Shown here: positions 1-33,469 of the stretch, piece after piece
Numbering within the stretch: the first letter of the stretch is position 1
Layout: each line of letters starts with the position of its first letter
Origin: Patescibacteria group bacterium
Lineage (GTDB): Bacteria; Patescibacteriota; Minisyncoccia; Phycocordibacterales; JBHPGB01
Length of the DNA stretch: 54,972 nt
Direction of reading: 5' to 3'
Assembly (NCBI GenBank): GCA_042571085.1
Contig: JBHPGB010000004.1
Location: 1-54,972 of the forward strand
Notes under the pieces: generated by a model
Seen by the model: only the letters and a program-made list of their open reading frames with translations
What the model was told of the DNA's origin: nothing
Databases searched by the model: none
Made by a program: the position numbers and the translations under genes

Positions 1-205
1 TTTATTCCTTTTGTAACGATAGGAAGAACGTCGTCATACATATTTAAATTAACAACATCTGCCAATTTAAACCATTGAGCATCATCAAGACCACCATTAT
101 CTTCTTCAAGTTTTAATGGTACAAATTCTGCTTGCGCCAAAAAGTAAGAAACCTGACGACGTTCTTCCTATCGTTACAAAAGGAATAAATTTATTAAAAA
201 AATAA
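1..205. other. Fold-back at the window start, containing the C-terminal fragment of a probable NUDIX-type gene
   Basis: 1-36 is the exact reverse complement of 154-189. Reversing 37-153 and joining it to 154-205 gives one frame, VSYFLAQAEFVPLKLEEDNGGLDDAQWFKLADVVNLNMYDDVLPIVTKGINLLKK*, with the stop at 203-205. The NUDIX call is tentative because only a fragment is present. Confidence 0.6.
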
Positions 206-8426: not shown

Positions 8427-8449
8427 ACTTGGCGCTCGGAGCGCCAAGT
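8427..8449. repeat. REP-like palindrome 1 (inverted relative to copies 2-4)
   Basis: acttggcgct-cgg-agcgccaagt, perfect 10-bp stem. Confidence 0.85.
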
Positions 8450-8463
8450 TGTATAATATTTAC

Positions 8464-9090
8464 ATGCCCAAACGCAAAATAGAATTTTATACAGGAGGAA
8501 CATATCACATATATAATAGAGGTGTAGATAAGCGTGATATTGTGACTGATCAATACGATCAGCTTCGTTTTTTACGTACTTTAAACATATTTAACACAAC
8601 AGAACATGTTGGAAGTGTGTACGAGTACGATGTGTGCACAAAGAAGAGAAAACTTGGCGCTCCGAGCACCAAGTTGGTAGAAATTATTGCGTTTAATTTG
8701 TTGGATAACCACTACCATTTGATTTTGAGGCAGTTGGTGGATGGTGGTATTAGTAAGTTCATGCAAAGTTTTTCCGCAGGGTATGTTATGTATTTTAATA
8801 ATAAACATGAAAGATCAGGACCATTATTCCAAGGAGCTTTCAAAGCATCACCTGTTGGAGAAAGAAAGGAAGAGATTATTGCTTATGTAAATTTAAATCA
8901 TGTGATTCATGGACTTGGCGCTCCGAGCGCCAAGTGGGGGATACGCAGTAGTTGGAGGGAGTATGGCGATAAAATGGCAGGTATTGTAGAGATTAAAAAA
9001 TGGAAAGATTTCAATAAAAAAAGATCAATAGAAATTGCGCGAAAAGTAAAGCAAGAGCGAGATGAGGTGAAAAAGAATGAGTTTGAATAA
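8464..9090 (+). CDS. REP-associated tyrosine transposase (RAYT/TnpA-REP, Y1 HUH family)
   Basis: YHIYNRG motif, HUH motif DNHYHL, SGPLFQG, and catalytic-type AYV-LN helix. ATG at 8464 follows TATAAT at 8452. Confidence 0.85.
   Translation: MPKRKIEFYTGGTYHIYNRGVDKRDIVTDQYDQLRFLRTLNIFNTTEHVGSVYEYDVCTKKRKLGAPSTKLVEIIAFNLLDNHYHLILRQLVDGGISKFMQSFSAGYVMYFNNKHERSGPLFQGAFKASPVGERKEEIIAYVNLNHVIHGLGAPSAKWGIRSSWREYGDKMAGIVEIKKWKDFNKKRSIEIARKVKQERDEVKKNEFE
8651..8675. repeat. REP-like palindrome 2, inside the RAYT ORF
   Basis: aacttggcgct-ccg-agcaccaagtt, translated as KLGAPSTKL. Confidence 0.85.
8913..8935. repeat. REP-like palindrome 3, inside the RAYT ORF
   Basis: acttggcgct-ccg-agcgccaagt, translated as LGAPSAK. 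Confidence 0.85.
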
Positions 9091-9114
9091 ACTTGGCGCT
9101 CCGAGCGCCAAGTT
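9090..9114. repeat. REP-like palindrome 4, directly after the RAYT stop
   Basis: aacttggcgct-ccg-agcgccaagtt. Confidence 0.85.
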
Positions 9115-9162
9115 GGTGCTTATTGTATACAAATTCTTATTTTTCCATATAATAGAGCTATT

Positions 9163-10929
9163 ATGCAATCACAAGAAATCAGACAGAAATTTTTAGACTT
9201 TTTTGAAAAGCGTGGACACGCAATATTACCAAGCGCTTCACTTGTGCCGGAGAATGATCCTTCGGTGCTTTTTACTACCGCTGGTATGCAGCCACTAGTG
9301 CCATATTTGCTTGGAGAAGCACATCCTAAAGGTGAAATGCTTGCGAGTGTGCAGAAGTGTGTGCGTACTCAAGACATTGATGAAATTGGCGACAACACTC
9401 ACGATACTTTTTTTGAAATGCTTGGTAATTGGTCACTTGGATCATATTTTAAAAAAGAGGCTATTACTTGGAGTTATGAGTTTTTAACCAGTAAAGATGA
9501 GGGATTAAGACTCGATCCATCTAAGCTATACGTGACGGTGTTTGAAGGTAATGAAGATGCGCCACGAGACGAAGAGTCGTTTGAAATATGGAAGTCGCTC
9601 GGCGTGCCAGAGCACCGTATCTATTTCATGGATGCGAAATCAAATTGGTGGAGTCCGGGTGAAGACGGGCCATGCGGGCCAGATTCAGAAATGTTTTACG
9701 ATGTGACTGATAAAGGTTTGGGCGACATGACGAAAGAAGAGTTTATCGCAGCAGATGATAGACAAGACGTGGTGGAGATTTGGAATGATGTGTTTATGGA
9801 ATATGAAAAGAAAGAAGGAAAGGTAGTCGGCAAACTCGCGAAGCAGAATGTTGACACAGGTGCCGGGCTTGAGCGTCTTGTGATGGTAATGCAAGGGAAA
9901 AATAATATTTTTGACACTGATTTGTTTGAGGATTTAATTACACATATTCGCGAGCACGCATCAAATGAAAACATACGCGCAGAGAGAATTTTTGCGGATC
10001 ATATTCGCACAGCAACATTCATGATCGCTGATGGTGTGACTCCTTCAAACACAGATAGTGGATACATCCTACGTCGTCTTTTGCGCCGTGCTGTGCGATA
10101 TGGTGATGTACTCGGTATTTCAAAAGGAATACTTTTTGAGTTTGCAGGAATTGTGATTAAAAAATATGAGGCTGTTTATCCAAATCTTGGCAAGCAATCA
10201 TCTGTGATAGAAGAAGAGATAAGAAAAGAAGAAGTTAAATTTAGGGAAACGCTTGAGAAGGGAATGAAAGAGTTCGAAAAAATTTCACACGCAAATATTT
10301 CCGGCCGAGATGCTTTTGTACTCTTTAGTACGTACGGCTTTCCGTTTGAAATGACAGAAGAGCTTGCGGAAGAGCACGGCATATCTGTGAACGAAGATGA
10401 ATATAAAGCAGAAATGGAAAAACACCAAGAGCTTTCCCGCACAGCTTCAGCAGGTAAATTTAAAGGTGGAGTAGGAGGAGATTCTCCGGAGCAAAGAAAA
10501 TATCACACAGCTACACACTTATTACAGCAAGCGCTTCGCGATGTGCTTGGTAATCATGTGACTCAGAAGGGAAGTAATATAACAGACGAGCGGTTACGCT
10601 TTGATTTTACACATGGAGAAAAAATGAGTGCAGAAGAAAAAGTGCGTGTGGAAGATATTGTAAATGAAAAAATTAACGACGCCCTACCAATTTCATTTGA
10701 AGAAATGAGTGTTGATGAGGCGCGTGAGCTTGGTGCACTTGGTATATTTGATGATAAGTATGGTGACAAGGTAAAAGTGTATACAGTGGGCGAGAAAGAC
10801 GATGTGTATAGTAGGGAAATATGTGGCGGTCCGCACGTGGAAAATACAAGCGAGCTCGGTAAATTCAGAATTAAGAAAGAAGAAGCTAGTTCGGCGGGAG
10901 TTAGGCGAATAAAAGCAGTGCTTGAATAA
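9163..10929 (+). CDS. alaS: Alanine--tRNA ligase, short form (588 aa)
   Basis: LFTTAGMQP, HDTFFEMLGNWS, VDTGAGLERL; editing domain HTATH and CGGPH; ends SAGVRRIKAV. Confidence 0.96.
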   Translation: MQSQEIRQKFLDFFEKRGHAILPSASLVPENDPSVLFTTAGMQPLVPYLLGEAHPKGEMLASVQKCVRTQDIDEIGDNTHDTFFEMLGNWSLGSYFKKEAITWSYEFLTSKDEGLRLDPSKLYVTVFEGNEDAPRDEESFEIWKSLGVPEHRIYFMDAKSNWWSPGEDGPCGPDSEMFYDVTDKGLGDMTKEEFIAADDRQDVVEIWNDVFMEYEKKEGKVVGKLAKQNVDTGAGLERLVMVMQGKNNIFDTDLFEDLITHIREHASNENIRAERIFADHIRTATFMIADGVTPSNTDSGYILRRLLRRAVRYGDVLGISKGILFEFAGIVIKKYEAVYPNLGKQSSVIEEEIRKEEVKFRETLEKGMKEFEKISHANISGRDAFVLFSTYGFPFEMTEELAEEHGISVNEDEYKAEMEKHQELSRTASAGKFKGGVGGDSPEQRKYHTATHLLQQALRDVLGNHVTQKGSNITDERLRFDFTHGEKMSAEEKVRVEDIVNEKINDALPISFEEMSVDEARELGALGIFDDKYGDKVKVYTVGEKDDVYSREICGGPHVENTSELGKFRIKKEEASSAGVRRIKAVLE

Positions 10930-11054: not shown

Positions 11055-11179
11055 ATGAATCCCGTTAGAGATCCAAACTGTTTTTTATGGCAATATGGAA
11101 TATAACGAGATTCTGATCGATGTTTTAACAAGATATAATCAGATACGGAAGATTTTCTTCCTATCTCTAACGGGATGAA
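11055..11179 (+). mobile_element. Start-codon-associated ~120-bp inverted-repeat element, copy 2
   Basis: TIRs atcccgttagagat (11059-11072) and atctctaacgggat (11163-11176). ATGAA direct repeat at 11055-11059 and 11175-11179. Confidence 0.75.
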
Positions 11180-18336: not shown

Positions 18337-18406
18337 ACTTTTTTTTGTAAAGGGGTAAAATTAATTTTAATATTAAAATTAATTTTACCCCTTTACAAAA
18401 AAAAGT
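18337..18406. repeat. Perfect 70-bp palindrome with no loop
   Basis: acttttttttgtaaaggggtaaaattaattttaat followed by its exact reverse complement. Confidence 0.85.
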
Positions 18407-20837: not shown

Positions 20838-20980
20838 TACCCCGTCTGCTTGCAGCGGGGATTACAAGTGCAATAAACTGATATGCCCGGAGGGCACACT
20901 TTACCAAAAATTACCCCCGGTTCGCAGCAGGCTTCAATCGAGAATATATCATAGTTTGCTGCGAGGTAATTTATATTTTC
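20838..20980 (+). mobile_element. ~140-bp palindrome-rich element (IS200/IS605/REP-like non-autonomous), copy A
   Basis: ccccgtctgcttgcagcgggg, tgcccggagggca and aaattacccccgg...gctgcgaggtaattt. Homologous to 27764-27900 in the opposite orientation. Confidence 0.7.
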
Positions 20981-21134
20981 TTTATCTTTTATTTATCAGG
21001 ACTTCATCATTCATTTGCTATATTTACTCACAGGACAGTTACAGCCAAAAGGATTTGGCAACGGCAAAATGCCTGTGTAATCTACACGGCATTTTTTAGT
21101 TCTTTTTAATTAACAACAACACGGGAGTAATCCA

Positions 21135-22472: not shown

Positions 22473-22480
22473 TTTTAGTC

Positions 22481-24012: not shown

Positions 24013-24064
24013 AAAAAACTGCCAATTCAGGCGGTTTTTTGTTATTATTTATGGATTATGAAAA
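24013..24064 (+). repeat. 52-bp terminator-plus-start module, copy 2
   Basis: Near-identical to 22481-22532. Confidence 0.8.
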
Positions 24065-26013
24065 ATATTTCAAATAAATTAATTATAGGAATTTGCGTAG
24101 TTGTTTTAATAAGTATTGGACTTTTGGCAATGGTTTATGGGCAAACAAAAGATCAGCAAAATGATGAAGTTGTTGAGGGTGTGAGTGTTGCTGAAATACA
24201 GTATGTAAAATTAAAAGACTGCCCAGAAAAAACATATGAAGATGATTCTCTGGCATACTCAAACCCGAATTATTTTATGTGTAAGAGCTATTTAACAGAT
24301 GGTGAGTATGTATACTACCATGGTATACGGGCTGTTGCTGCGCCAGATCAGCCTCTGGCACCTAGTTTTATAGCCACATCATCTCCCAACATCCAAGACC
24401 CTAAATTGATGGGAGCGACAATTGTTGAAGGTGTGGATCTTGAAACATTTGAAATCATTTATTTTGACGAATCTTTACCAACAGCACAGCAAAATAATAT
24501 GTATTCTTATGCAAGAGACAAAGATTTTTTATACTGGGAAGGGAAGAGATTTGACGGGGTTGATCCGAATACGTTTTCCATTCTTGGTAGAGGGTTTATA
24601 AAAGACAAGGACTCTGTGTATTATTGGTGGAAAAAACTTGAAGGGTCAGATCCTGAAACTTTTGAATTTTTGTGGAGCGGTTTTGCGCGAGATAAAAATT
24701 TTGTGTATAGAAATAATCCAGAGCCAGAAATATTTGATGGAATTGATCCTGCAACTTTTGAAAAGATTGATGATGCATATTTTAAAGACAAGGACGCTAT
24801 CTATTATCGACAAAAGAAGATTGAAGGTTCTGATCCGGCAACGTTTGAATTCTTGTATGGTTATACAGGAAAAGATTCAGGTAATGCGTATGCTAAGGAT
24901 AAAAATGCAGTATATTATCTCGGAAAAAGGCTTGAGGGGGTTGATTCAGAAACTTTTGAGTTTCTGCCCAATACTTGGAGTAAAGACAAAAACTTTGTAT
25001 ATAGGTATGACGGTGAGCGAGTTGAAGGAATTGACCCGGCAACGTTTGAATTTGTCGATAAAAGTACGCAATACATAAAGGATAAAAACGGCGTTTATTA
25101 TGCTTATGGAGATAATAAAAAAATTGATGATATGGACTCGAGCACATTTAAAGTGTTAAGCGGCGGGTATGTGAAAGATAAAAATTTTGTATGGATTGCC
25201 GTTAGCGGTCGTGACCACGGCATATATTCTCATAAAAAAATAGATGGTGCTGACGCTAATAGTTTTGAAGTGATTGAGCGACAATATGCGCGAGATGCCA
25301 CGACTGTTTATTGTTCTGGTAATGTTATGGATGGGTTTGATTGGGGTAGTGTTGTAATGCTTCAGGATAATTATATTCGCGATAAGAATTTTGTTTTTCA
25401 GGGATGTAATAAGATTGAGGGGGCTGACGCAAAGTCTTTCGAAGTATTGAGTTACAAATACTCAAAGGATGATAACTCAGTGTATTACATGGGGAGTAAA
25501 ATTAATGATGCAGATGCTGGTAGTTTTGAAAAACTTACTTGTAGTTGCTCAAAAGATAAAAATAATATTTACAAAGCTGTTCAGCAAGAATCTGGATCAG
25601 TTATTTTAAAATTCGGCAATTTTGATGTTCCCACATTTCGTATCATAGGTAATTGTAATTTTGCAGATAAAAATGGTGTATATATAACAGAAGGACGTAA
25701 GATTGTTGGTGCTGATCCAAATACTTTTGAATTTCTGGGTGGAAATTATAGTAAAGATGCCTATCGTGCTTATTGGGATTATGAATCAATTGACGGAGTC
25801 GATATTGGAACATTCAGATTTAATGGTGGAAAGTTTGCTAAAGATAAAAATACTGTGTATTACGAAGGAAAAGTATATGATGATGATTTGAGGGCAAGTT
25901 TAGGACAAGTGGAAATATTAGAGGGGATACGATATCCAATAAGTGACACTCTGCCAGGACCGGTTCTTCTTGAGGAAGTTGAAATACAAGAGGTGTATCC
26001 AATCGGGCTTTAA
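24058..26013 (+). CDS. DKNYY-family repeat surface protein
   Basis: N-terminal anchor and many D(P/S)xTFE...Y(A/S)(R/K)DK(N/D)xVY repeats. Confidence 0.9.
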   Translation: MKNISNKLIIGICVVVLISIGLLAMVYGQTKDQQNDEVVEGVSVAEIQYVKLKDCPEKTYEDDSLAYSNPNYFMCKSYLTDGEYVYYHGIRAVAAPDQPLAPSFIATSSPNIQDPKLMGATIVEGVDLETFEIIYFDESLPTAQQNNMYSYARDKDFLYWEGKRFDGVDPNTFSILGRGFIKDKDSVYYWWKKLEGSDPETFEFLWSGFARDKNFVYRNNPEPEIFDGIDPATFEKIDDAYFKDKDAIYYRQKKIEGSDPATFEFLYGYTGKDSGNAYAKDKNAVYYLGKRLEGVDSETFEFLPNTWSKDKNFVYRYDGERVEGIDPATFEFVDKSTQYIKDKNGVYYAYGDNKKIDDMDSSTFKVLSGGYVKDKNFVWIAVSGRDHGIYSHKKIDGADANSFEVIERQYARDATTVYCSGNVMDGFDWGSVVMLQDNYIRDKNFVFQGCNKIEGADAKSFEVLSYKYSKDDNSVYYMGSKINDADAGSFEKLTCSCSKDKNNIYKAVQQESGSVILKFGNFDVPTFRIIGNCNFADKNGVYITEGRKIVGADPNTFEFLGGNYSKDAYRAYWDYESIDGVDIGTFRFNGGKFAKDKNTVYYEGKVYDDDLRASLGQVEILEGIRYPISDTLPGPVLLEEVEIQEVYPIGL

Positions 26014-27588: not shown

Positions 27589-28209
27589 TTACTTTGTTCG
27601 TGCGACGTAAGTATTTAGCAGTTGTGTGATTATTGTTGTGATAAAAAGCAGAATAAAAATCTCAAATGGGAATTTAAAGAATGCGATTATAGAAAATAAA
27701 AATAAAAATCCTGTTAAAAATATTTCAAAAGTACGGTAATATTTTTTTAGAAAAATATAAAATAAATTACCCCGCAGCAAGCTACGCGGTATTTCCAATG
27801 AAACTTGCTGCGGACCGGGGGTAATTTTTGCTAAGGAGTGCCCCTCCGGGCACACTCGTTTATTGAGCTTGTTCATCCCCGCTGCAAGCAGACGGGGAGT
27901 GGTCCCCAAGCACGACAATAAAATAAATAAAAAATTAGCAAAAATAAACCATGGTATAAAAGATCCCCAGAAGCCTTTCCATATTACATGCATGGAATGT
28001 TGTCGCGGATTTGTAAGACTGTATTCAAAAGCTCCATTTCTTTCAACCATGTCATAACTCGAATTCATAGATACGAATTCTACAGGAAATCCAAATTGAA
28101 TATCCCTTTCTTGCTCCACAGTGTGCACCATTGTGGGGGCAAATAATGTGCATACCATCGCTATCAATGTAAGTGCGAGTATGTGAAAAGATTGTTTTAT
28201 TGATTTCAT
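27589..28209 (-). CDS. Membrane protein carrying an in-frame palindromic element
   Basis: TM-FGFP-TM N-terminal half. About 45 codons read through element copy B, followed by a further hydrophobic tail. Confidence 0.55.
   Translation of the reverse strand: MKSIKQSFHILALTLIAMVCTLFAPTMVHTVEQERDIQFGFPVEFVSMNSSYDMVERNGAFEYSLTNPRQHSMHVIWKGFWGSFIPWFIFANFLFILLSCLGTTPRLLAAGMNKLNKRVCPEGHSLAKITPGPQQVSLEIPRSLLRGNLFYIFLKKYYRTFEIFLTGFLFLFSIIAFFKFPFEIFILLFITTIITQLLNTYVARTK
27764..27900 (-). mobile_element. ~140-bp palindrome-rich element, copy B
   Basis: Reverse complement aligns with 20838-20980. Includes taccccgcagcaagctacgcggtat. Confidence 0.7.
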
Positions 28210-33069: not shown

Positions 33070-33408
33070 ATGCAAGAACAAGATCAAGTATTTCTTGAGT
33101 ATGTTGTGAAAGCATTGGTTGATAATCCTGACGCTGTAAAAGTTGACCGAAAGGTTGATGAGATGGGTGTTCTTTTGACACTAGACATCGACGCAGCAGA
33201 CATGGGTAAAATTATTGGCCGAAGTGGAAACACAGCAAAGGCTCTTAGAACTCTTCTTCGTGTAGTTGGAATGAAAAACAACTCACGTGTAAACCTTAAG
33301 ATCAACGAACCAGAAGGCGGTCAGCGTTACGAAGCTGGAGCATCTGACGAAGCTAGCTCAACTACAGCAGCTGATGTTGATGAGGCAATAGAAGAACTTA
33401 AAGCGTAA
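33070..33408 (+). CDS. khpA: KH-domain RNA-binding protein
   Basis: LEYVVKALVDNPDAV...DMGKIIGRSGNTAKALRTLL. Confidence 0.92.
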   Translation: MQEQDQVFLEYVVKALVDNPDAVKVDRKVDEMGVLLTLDIDAADMGKIIGRSGNTAKALRTLLRVVGMKNNSRVNLKINEPEGGQRYEAGASDEASSTTAADVDEAIEELKA

Positions 33409-33469
33409 ATTTTAAAGAAAAAACCGTGCTATACTTATAGCACGGTTTTTTCTTTAAAATTTACGCTTT
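33400..33469. repeat. 70-bp palindrome (34-bp arms, 2-nt loop) overlapping the khpA stop
   Basis: aaagcgtaaattttaaagaaaaaaccgtgctata-ct-exact reverse complement. Confidence 0.85.

Follow-up and report, generated by a model that had tools for sequence, protein, structure and literature searches.

A RAYT-like HUH enzyme gene of Patescibacteria accompanied by short palindromes in its promoter region, its coding loops and at its stop codon

The DNA analysed here (the window, 54,972 bases in length) is contig JBHPGB010000004.1 of a Patescibacteria group bacterium (assembly GCA_042571085.1). It contains a gene whose product is, judging from its modelled fold and active site, a Y1 HUH enzyme resembling the RAYTs, and four copies of a 23-nt palindrome: one upstream of the gene (U), two in frame within it (S1 and S2) and one at its stop codon (D). 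Sequence comparison with homologous loci indicates that what is maintained in these hairpins is the DNA element and not a peptide motif. We lean, with some reserve, towards viewing the locus as a REPtron-like unit in which cognate hairpins are maintained in the gene and its promoter, probably for self-regulation.

The enzyme gene and its four hairpins

The ATG at 8464 was retained as the best start because homologues begin with MP(K/R)RK. The protein matches Pfam Y1_Tnp (PF01797; 30 bits against a cut-off of 23, E = 6e-7); Y1_Tnp was the sole domain found, no helix-turn-helix or other duplex-binding domain being detected in the protein. A profile search of PDB sequences gave no hit. An AlphaFold2 (AF2) model built on 40 homologues (predicted local distance difference test score, pLDDT, 87.7) had as its top Foldseek match in the PDB 4ER8, the E. 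coli RAYT (TnpAREP) with a REP hairpin (E = 2.6e-6), followed by the TnpA proteins of IS608 and ISDra2; every one of the 23 best matches (4ER8, 2VJV and 2XM3 among them) is a Y1 transposase or a RAYT. The HUH motif and the three residues of the Y-x3-N-x3-H helix (Table 1) are invariant in an alignment of 40 homologues (A1), and the latter have the same spacing as Y115, N119 and H123 of E. coli TnpAREP (PMC3479197). The distance from HUH to the tyrosine is 58 residues here versus 56 in TnpAREP, and a C-terminal extension of about 58 residues follows H149. According to the modelling, the kinship to RAYT is visible through the fold only. A sequence-only reading of this DNA had labelled the gene a RAYT and the palindromes its REPs; the label stands as far as the fold, nearest to 4ER8, and the Y-x3-N-x3-H helix are concerned, but not in other respects, since the NCBIfam RAYT model NF047646 scored 20 bits against a cut-off of 80 and the hairpins have no GT(A/G)G head, no stem mismatch and a low copy number.

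In a database search, 1050 proteins reached E ≤ 0.001; those with a named source are from Patescibacteria, Paceibacterota or Parcubacteria. The same gene with its four hairpins, lying between yqeY and alaS as in the window, was found in two more assemblies, one a metagenome-assembled genome (MAG) from NCBI and one a Logan assembly, so that the chromosomal position of the unit is unchanged across three assemblies. In addition, nine homologous loci share flanking genes (protein identity 51–95%), and the gene is single copy in the window as well as in each homologous locus (loci up to 20 kb). These data bear on the idea that the unit is an autonomous IS200-like insertion sequence with U and D as its ends and the internal copies as alternative ends. 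Its length (687 bp from hairpin to hairpin) is that of IS200 and its gene is tightly bracketed by hairpins; however, the fixed position, the synteny, the single copy and the RAYT-type helix make this idea very improbable.

The whole window was searched with the pattern ACTTGGCGCTNNNAGCGCCAAGT / ACTTGGCGCT-CSG-AGCGCCAAGT. Pattern search and translation confirmed the four copies that had been reported from the sequence, i.e. an inverted one upstream, one after the stop and two in frame as LGAPSTK and LGAPSAK; the second internal copy indeed lies just past the catalytic tyrosine helix (Y141, N145, H149, G150, L151). No fifth copy exists in the window even with up to 3 mismatches allowed, and 100 dinucleotide-preserving shuffles gave 0 matches to the 23-mer. 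The G+C content of the hairpins is 65% versus 37% for the window. When folded as single-stranded DNA (ssDNA), U, S1, S2 and D form hairpins of 10–11 bp with dG of −11.8, −7.5, −11.9 and −13.1 kcal/mol, respectively (z-scores −3.2 to −6.2). Successive sites are 225, 261 and 178 bp apart, spacings from which no helical phasing is evident, and 14 nt separate the end of U from the ATG. Hairpin D is only weakly terminator-like, with no T-run, and a search of Rfam gave no match for the hairpin unit. Among assembled contigs of public sequencing runs, no excision or inversion junctions were seen at the hairpins; one skip, from 8588 to 8791 on a divergent contig, has borders that are not at hairpins. 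In a related strain from a sediment metagenome (run X2), S2 differs by two synonymous C>T changes (window positions 8919 and 8928) that leave LGAPSAK intact but convert two stem pairs to G.T; decay of an internal copy may be starting here.

Table 1. Features of the hairpin unit in the window, occupancy of the corresponding positions in homologous loci, and in-frame family hairpins in ordinary genes of related genomes (locus:coordinates)
Feature	Coordinates	Strand	Description	Occupied loci
Hairpin U	8427-8449	.	ACTTGGCGCT-CGG-AGCGCCAAGT; loop inverted relative to the other three copies; fills the promoter spacer	62/75
Promoter-like site	8429-8457	+	TTGGCG-17 nt-TATAAT; 10/12 consensus matches; −35 from the 5' arm of hairpin U	
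Predicted RAYT-like Y1 HUH enzyme gene	8464-9090	+	208 aa; Pfam Y1_Tnp match, AF2 model, Foldseek	
Hairpin S1, internal	8652-8674	+	loop CCG; one stem mismatch (A.C), G>A at hairpin position 17; translated L64-G-A-P-S-T-K70	39/75
HUH motif	8710-8718	+	H83-Y84-H85; codons checked	
Catalytic helix	8884-8910	+	Y141, N145, H149	
Hairpin S2, internal	8913-8935	+	loop CCG; perfect; translated L151-G-A-P-S-A-K157	36/75
Hairpin D, downstream	9091-9113	.	loop CCG; perfect; first base directly after the TAA stop (9088-9090)	56/75
In-frame hairpin	L058:5467-5489		DnaG	
In-frame hairpin	L043:1992-2014		RNB-family RNase	
In-frame hairpin	L038:4330-4352		Fmt	
In-frame hairpin	L009:13855-13877		PMT_2 glycosyltransferase	
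In-frame hairpin	L017:3650-3672		ApbE	

Hairpin sites in homologous loci

Eighty homologous loci, which are phylogenetically non-independent, were fetched from metagenomes and their DNA was scanned; the four places recur as hairpin sites in 77 homologous loci, and occupancy of the four positions could be scored in 75 (Table 1). It was called by matching a sequence window to the locus's own hairpin, and the outcome was bimodal, i.e. at most 3 mismatches or background level, with few decayed intermediates between occupied and empty sites. The family element has the form ACTTGG-N4-N3-N4'-CCAAGT. Its foot (ACTTGG/CCAAGT) is constant in most genomes; the four inner pairs and the loop vary among genomes, with full compensation, and are uniform across the sites of one locus. 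For 115 distinct hairpins, 96.6% of the cells were paired and the inner pairs had 43–54 double changes each, although the hairpins were partly ascertained by complementarity, which inflates these pairing statistics and takes weight from them as a sign of maintenance. Perfect stems were found in 78% of the S2 copies, 75% of the D copies, 66% of the U copies and 54% of the S1 copies, so that the internal copies have stayed no less intact than those on the flanks, and hairpin D starts 0–4 nt past the stop in 23 of 39 loci. Loci without the ACTTGG type have other palindromes at U, S1 and D (ACTTAG..., AGTAAGGGGT-TGG, AGACAGCGCC-TAA, CAGATAGGGG-TTGA, GCTGAGAAGCC-CGG and 35–39-nt forms); it appears that the architecture outlives the hairpin sequence.

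Family hairpins were also seen doubled back to back or fused as 36–38-nt compound palindromes (L024:12897-12934, L061:658-739, L070:225-285 and L077:2674-2709). These are arranged like REPINs or BIMEs and, in L056 and L077, lie at U, S1 or D positions.

Variation between genomes together with identity within each of them indicates that the copies evolve in concert. Three of the nine loci with shared flanking genes (L025, L037 and L046; proteins 90–95% identical) have one stem and the loops GCC, TCC/GGA and GGC, and within each of these genomes U and S2 bear the same loop or its inverse. Two others (L031 and L047, 65% identical) have the same hairpin, which is located at S1 in the former and at S2 in the latter. 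Occupancy was then mapped on a rough neighbour-joining tree of the proteins. S2 occupancy required 9 parsimony steps compared with 25 in permutations (minimum 19), which argues that S2 is ancient and inherited as a site, while its sequence was repeatedly rewritten along with those of U and D. The corresponding figures for S1 (18 steps versus 25.3, minimum 17) point to a faster turnover of S1 than of S2. No mutual dependence between S1 and S2 occupancy was found (Fisher p = 0.15).

In the protein, S1 falls in the loop between helix 52–61 and strand 72–79, which leads to the HUH motif, and S2 begins two residues beyond the metal ligand H149, at the junction of the catalytic helix and the C-terminal extension. 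The two are the lowest-confidence stretches of the AF2 model (mean pLDDT 67 for residues 61–70 and 72 for residues 151–160). All internal copies of the ACTTGG type (23/23 for S1 and 34/34 for S2, hence 57/57) are read as L-G-x1-x2-x3-x4-K, with the hairpin loop corresponding to exactly one codon in every case. Both segments occupy fixed places in A1, and their sequence varies among proteins but matches inside each protein (KFGTPTSKL/FGTPTSKWG, LGSLTSKL/LGSLTSKWG and LGNPVSKS/LGNPVSKWG). In a comparison drawn from the 120 best database proteins, the two loops share a 7-mer at an identity of at least 6/7 in 52 of 116 proteins versus 3.4% of cross-protein pairs.

The recurrence of L, G and K at both loops in many homologues could be taken to mean that L-G-x-P-S-x-K is a functional peptide repeat, the DNA palindromy being incidental. 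We consider this hardly probable, given that the middle four positions, though hypervariable in the family, are identical within a protein, synonymous positions included, that the frequent P/R differences between the two loops amount to a flip of the hairpin loop (CCG/CGG), that the same 23-mer stands outside the open reading frame (ORF) on both sides and that in other clades these places hold palindromes and peptides of unrelated sequence. The peptides of homologues differ, each matching the gene-flanking palindrome of its own genome, and the view taken from the sequence alone, namely that the LGAPS segments are translated DNA palindromes, is thereby upheld. The L-G-x4-K peptides themselves are probably tolerated passengers in flexible loops. 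That the segments are loop insertions, as also suggested earlier, agrees with the low model confidence of these loops but not with their lengths, which are nearly equal with and without the hairpin (33 versus 31 and 14 versus 13.5 residues); a simple 8-residue insertion was ruled out on this ground.

Outside the gene, the homologous flanks (628 kb) yielded 12 strict copies, of which about half lie in frame within genes. Strict hairpin density is 1.77 per kb in gene units versus 0.019 per kb in these flanks, i.e. a 93-fold difference. Flank density is flat over 0–10 kb, neighbouring kilobases being no richer than those 9 kb away, and shuffles gave no hairpins. Local hopping from the gene was rejected because there is no density gradient with distance. 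The hairpin in DnaG (Table 1) lies in the linker that joins the Zn ribbon to the core, and that in the RNB-family (RNase R-type) enzyme in the OB/CSD2 linker; it thus appears that the streamlined genomes of Patescibacteria tolerate miniature palindromes within essential genes. Dispersed intragenic copies use all three frames (LGxxxxK, TWxxxxQV and xLAxxPPS), and a partly duplicated inner stem follows some of them, while the remaining dispersed copies are intergenic, often in the form C-hairpin-G. The count beyond the gene that the sequence-only reading proposed gave no copy in the rest of the window; in related loci, family hairpins are present at about 0.02 per kb in genes and spacers. An exact-pattern scan of 185,579 species genomes (the window's own genome not among them) yielded one match, in a Paceibacterota MAG (L003). 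This near-identical solitary copy (L003:6825-6845) is intergenic, 3' of a non-coding stretch of ~250 nt and ~50 nt upstream of a transketolase gene, and no RAYT-like gene was present within the 8 kb fetched.

Possible roles of the hairpins

Hairpin U is positioned as if built into a promoter. The ATG follows the −10 TATAAT by 6 nt and there is no Shine-Dalgarno sequence, so that the transcript is probably leaderless and begins at the ATG or close to it. Hairpin U, as located by sequence, sits in the −35/−10 spacer, an operator-like place, and would thus be outside the transcript, which argues for a role at the DNA level. The spacing from U to the ATG is exactly 14 nt in 25 of 48 loci (hairpin, G-N, TAnnAT, 6 nt, ATG, no Shine-Dalgarno sequence), the 5' arms of the family give TTGGnn 17 nt upstream of the −10, and in many loci the final T of the hairpin and the following G form an extended −10. 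A −10 box at the set offset was found for U in 36/48 cases, compared with 0/23 for S1, 0/34 for S2, 1/39 for D and 0/22 for dispersed copies. The promoter and leaderless calls are consensus matches, and it counts against them that Patescibacteria promoters are uncharacterised.

In the scheme that we prefer, the hairpin would be the putative cognate ssDNA site of the enzyme, because its conserved foot and free tip mirror the contacts in 4ER8, where TnpAREP touches the 5' head and the bottom of the stem and makes no contact with the loop or the five tip-proximal pairs. Repeated copying or conversion, either through strand transfer by the enzyme or through template switches from one 10-bp arm to another, would keep the copies alike, and the same step would also flip the loops. 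Putative binding at U, on extruded or transiently single-stranded DNA, would switch the gene off, and S1, S2 and D would provide further putative binding sites in transcribed DNA, with tight self-limitation of a potentially genotoxic nuclease as the outcome. The location of U inside the promoter supports this idea of feedback, and a self-regulatory function is suggested by it. Such a putative restraint of expression by hairpin binding would fit the strong down-regulation of TnpAREP described in PMC3479197.

The same promoter geometry (36/48 loci) is also what would be expected if the palindromes were duplex operators, i.e. dyads bound in double-stranded form by a dimeric protein or another factor, with U as the main site and S1, S2 and D as auxiliary ones. 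Perfect dyad symmetry and symmetric covariation of half-sites would follow from a dimer too. Against this, Y1_Tnp is the sole domain detected, known Y1 HUH enzymes bind ssDNA hairpins and TnpAREP is a monomer. Nor is there helical phasing, and the free flipping of loops would be intolerable to a protein that reads the centre, though neutral if the centre is unread. All in all, duplex operators seem unlikely. Even more doubtful is a role of the internal and 3' hairpins in the transcript (ribosome pausing, RNase processing or 3'-end protection). While S1, S2 and D are transcribed, and D abuts the stop in most loci and is weakly terminator-like, the most conserved copy is U, which by promoter geometry lies outside the transcript; moreover, the sense-strand stem mismatches in S1, S2 and D taken together (19 A.C versus 10 G.T) show no G.U-compatible excess, and Rfam contains no match.

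The alternative with the most to be said for it is that the copies are passive selfish insertions, i.e. that a 23-nt mobile palindrome survives where an in-frame insert of 8 residues is harmless, its copies having no role. It would account for the family hairpins in frame in the interdomain linkers of DnaG and the RNase R-type enzyme and in Fmt, ApbE and PMT_2, and for the placement of S1 and S2 in the least confident loops of the model; in addition, the hairpin is open in all reading frames. Several further observations weigh against maintained sites, and some of them favour insertion. Occupancy is variable, with 11 of the 68 loci that have flanking hairpins carrying no internal copy, from which it follows that internal copies are dispensable. 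The position of S1 drifts by 0–12 residues inside its loop and in more distant clades its hairpin is read in another register, a pattern that fits repeated insertion as well as ancient maintenance. The orientation of the copies follows no rule, except that TTA/TAA loops are always TTA inside the ORF; judged by the loop, U and D have the same orientation in some loci and are inverted in others, as in the window. Finally, E. coli TnpAREP rejects perfect palindromes and requires a GTAG head and a stem mismatch, neither of which is present here.

Passive insertion is nevertheless difficult to reconcile with the 93-fold density in the gene unit and the flat flanks, with an S2 occupancy that is inherited while its sequence keeps matching U and D, with internal copies that are as intact as the flanking ones and have few decayed intermediates, and with a single frame in 57/57 copies and loops of equal length with or without the hairpin. 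Comparison of the loci speaks more for maintained sites than for passive insertions, to which we assign a minor though appreciable probability. Self-targeting, tolerated insertion and a feedback site, the three options raised by the sequence-only reading, are inseparable by sequence alone.

A further-reaching version of the maintained-site reading is that the enzyme acts mainly on the DNA of its own gene. Promoter, coding-loop and stop-codon hairpins would then be obligatory cis sites, bound or nicked when single-stranded during transcription or replication, and would form a self-contained feedback or self-maintenance circuit, homogenised by the enzyme and kept in a large part of the Patescibacteria radiation (a 'REPtron without REPs'). 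We put this forward tentatively, as a possibility that is more likely wrong than right; if it were true, the coding sequence and the recognition site would be the same nucleotides.

This clade bears on how RAYTs recognise and copy REPs and on how they are restrained from spreading them. More than 1000 homologues are present in the databases, and throughout the clade the presumed recognition hairpin forms part of both the ORF and the promoter of the enzyme's gene. Recognition rules could be tested on dozens of naturally occurring enzyme/hairpin pairs that vary in a compensatory manner, and the autoregulation of an HUH nuclease becomes directly accessible. The clade also shows, in clean form, how 23-bp elements evolve in concert under coding and structural constraint at once.

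Known systems compared and other repeats of the window

The closest counterpart is the REPtron (yafM of E. coli, and those of Pseudomonas and Stenotrophomonas). Shared features are a Y1 HUH enzyme with an HUH motif, a Y-x3-N-x3-H helix and a C-terminal extension, a gene that is bracketed by short GC-rich hairpins and, in the loci compared, apparently inherited vertically at a single locus, hairpins that covary with the gene lineage and keep their palindromy through compensatory changes, and a conserved stem foot with a free tip, as expected from the 4ER8 contacts. REP and REPIN elements have been described as almost exclusively extragenic, and RAYT genes as REP-flanked. Here, in contrast, conserved places within the coding sequence carry hairpins too, the promoter incorporates another, some of the dispersed copies lie in genes, and the flanking copies are not consistently inverted. 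The hairpins themselves differ from REPs in being perfect 10-bp palindromes that start with ACTTGG and have neither a GT(A/G)G head nor a stem bulge; non-coding copies have only the C...G extension and no conserved single-stranded head. Copies outside the gene are rare (0.019 per kb), whereas REPs exceed 100 per genome and are mostly extragenic. The protein falls under the NCBIfam RAYT cut-off, and its host belongs to the Patescibacteria whereas RAYTs have been described mainly in Proteobacteria. The literature searched contained neither an account of REPs within the reading frame of a RAYT gene nor one of RAYT or IS200 enzymes from Patescibacteria or the candidate phyla radiation, which is not proof of absence in either case.

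IS200 elements (IS200/IS605) resemble the unit in having ~700 bp and one Y1 transposase gene between subterminal hairpins, and in IS200 a hairpin adjoining the 5' end of the gene limits expression. The present locus differs in that it is fixed and syntenic with no sign of mobility, contains internal copies and has identical perfect palindromes on its left and right, the ends of IS200 being distinct and imperfect; its active-site helix is of the N/H type and that of IS608 of the Q type. Rickettsia palindromic elements (RPEs) and the miniature inverted-repeat transposable elements of Coxiella are likewise palindromic repeats translated in frame inside normal proteins. RPEs are roughly 100–150 bp long, and the element described here is far shorter (23 nt or about 8 residues, a tenth of the size); unlike RPEs, it has a plausible cognate enzyme, whose own gene is its most frequent and most stable host. 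One repeat family in frame in several unrelated genes, the hallmark of RPEs, was found in related loci and in no other gene of the window. Another parallel is provided by lacO2 in lacZ and galOI in galE, which are auxiliary operators inside coding sequence, bound as duplexes by helix-turn-helix repressors. There, and presumably here, a regulatory site is repeated within the frame of the regulated gene and serves both as protein code and as binding site, but the likely ligand in our case is an HUH enzyme reading ssDNA hairpins, and looping or phasing is not evident.

The neighbouring alaS gene (9163-10929) encodes a product of just 588 aa (tRNA-synt_2c plus tRNA_SAD). It starts 9 nt past a TATAAT box (9148-9153) and may have a very short leader or none.

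Other repeats were noted elsewhere in the window. Two ~120-nt direct copies (1322-1445 and 11055-11177) are 83–89% identical and 9.7 kb apart; each holds an inverted repeat (CCCGTTAGAG...CTCTAACGGG). The copies gave no Rfam or tRNA match and may represent either a small mobile element or an RNA of unknown kind. Inverted repeats of ~125 nt at 20864-20987 and 27749-27872, which are 78–84% complementary and have GC-rich cores such as CCCCCGGTTCGCAGCAGGC, surround a 6.8-kb segment and could be transposon ends, the borders of an invertible segment or duplicated RNA genes. Long perfect palindromes occur at 18337-18406 (35-nt arms, no spacer) and 33400-33469 (34-nt arms, 2-nt spacer), and at the edge of the window positions 1-36 pair with 154-189 (36-nt arms, 117 nt apart); all of these are AT-rich and unrelated to the ACTTGG hairpin. 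Finally, positions 24419-25862 consist of diverged coding repeats of ~87–96 nt (consensus ...GxDxxTFE...KDKNxVYY...) that belong to a repeat-domain protein, near which there are paralogous gene starts at 24057 and 26019 and near-identical terminator-plus-start modules at 22480 and 24012.

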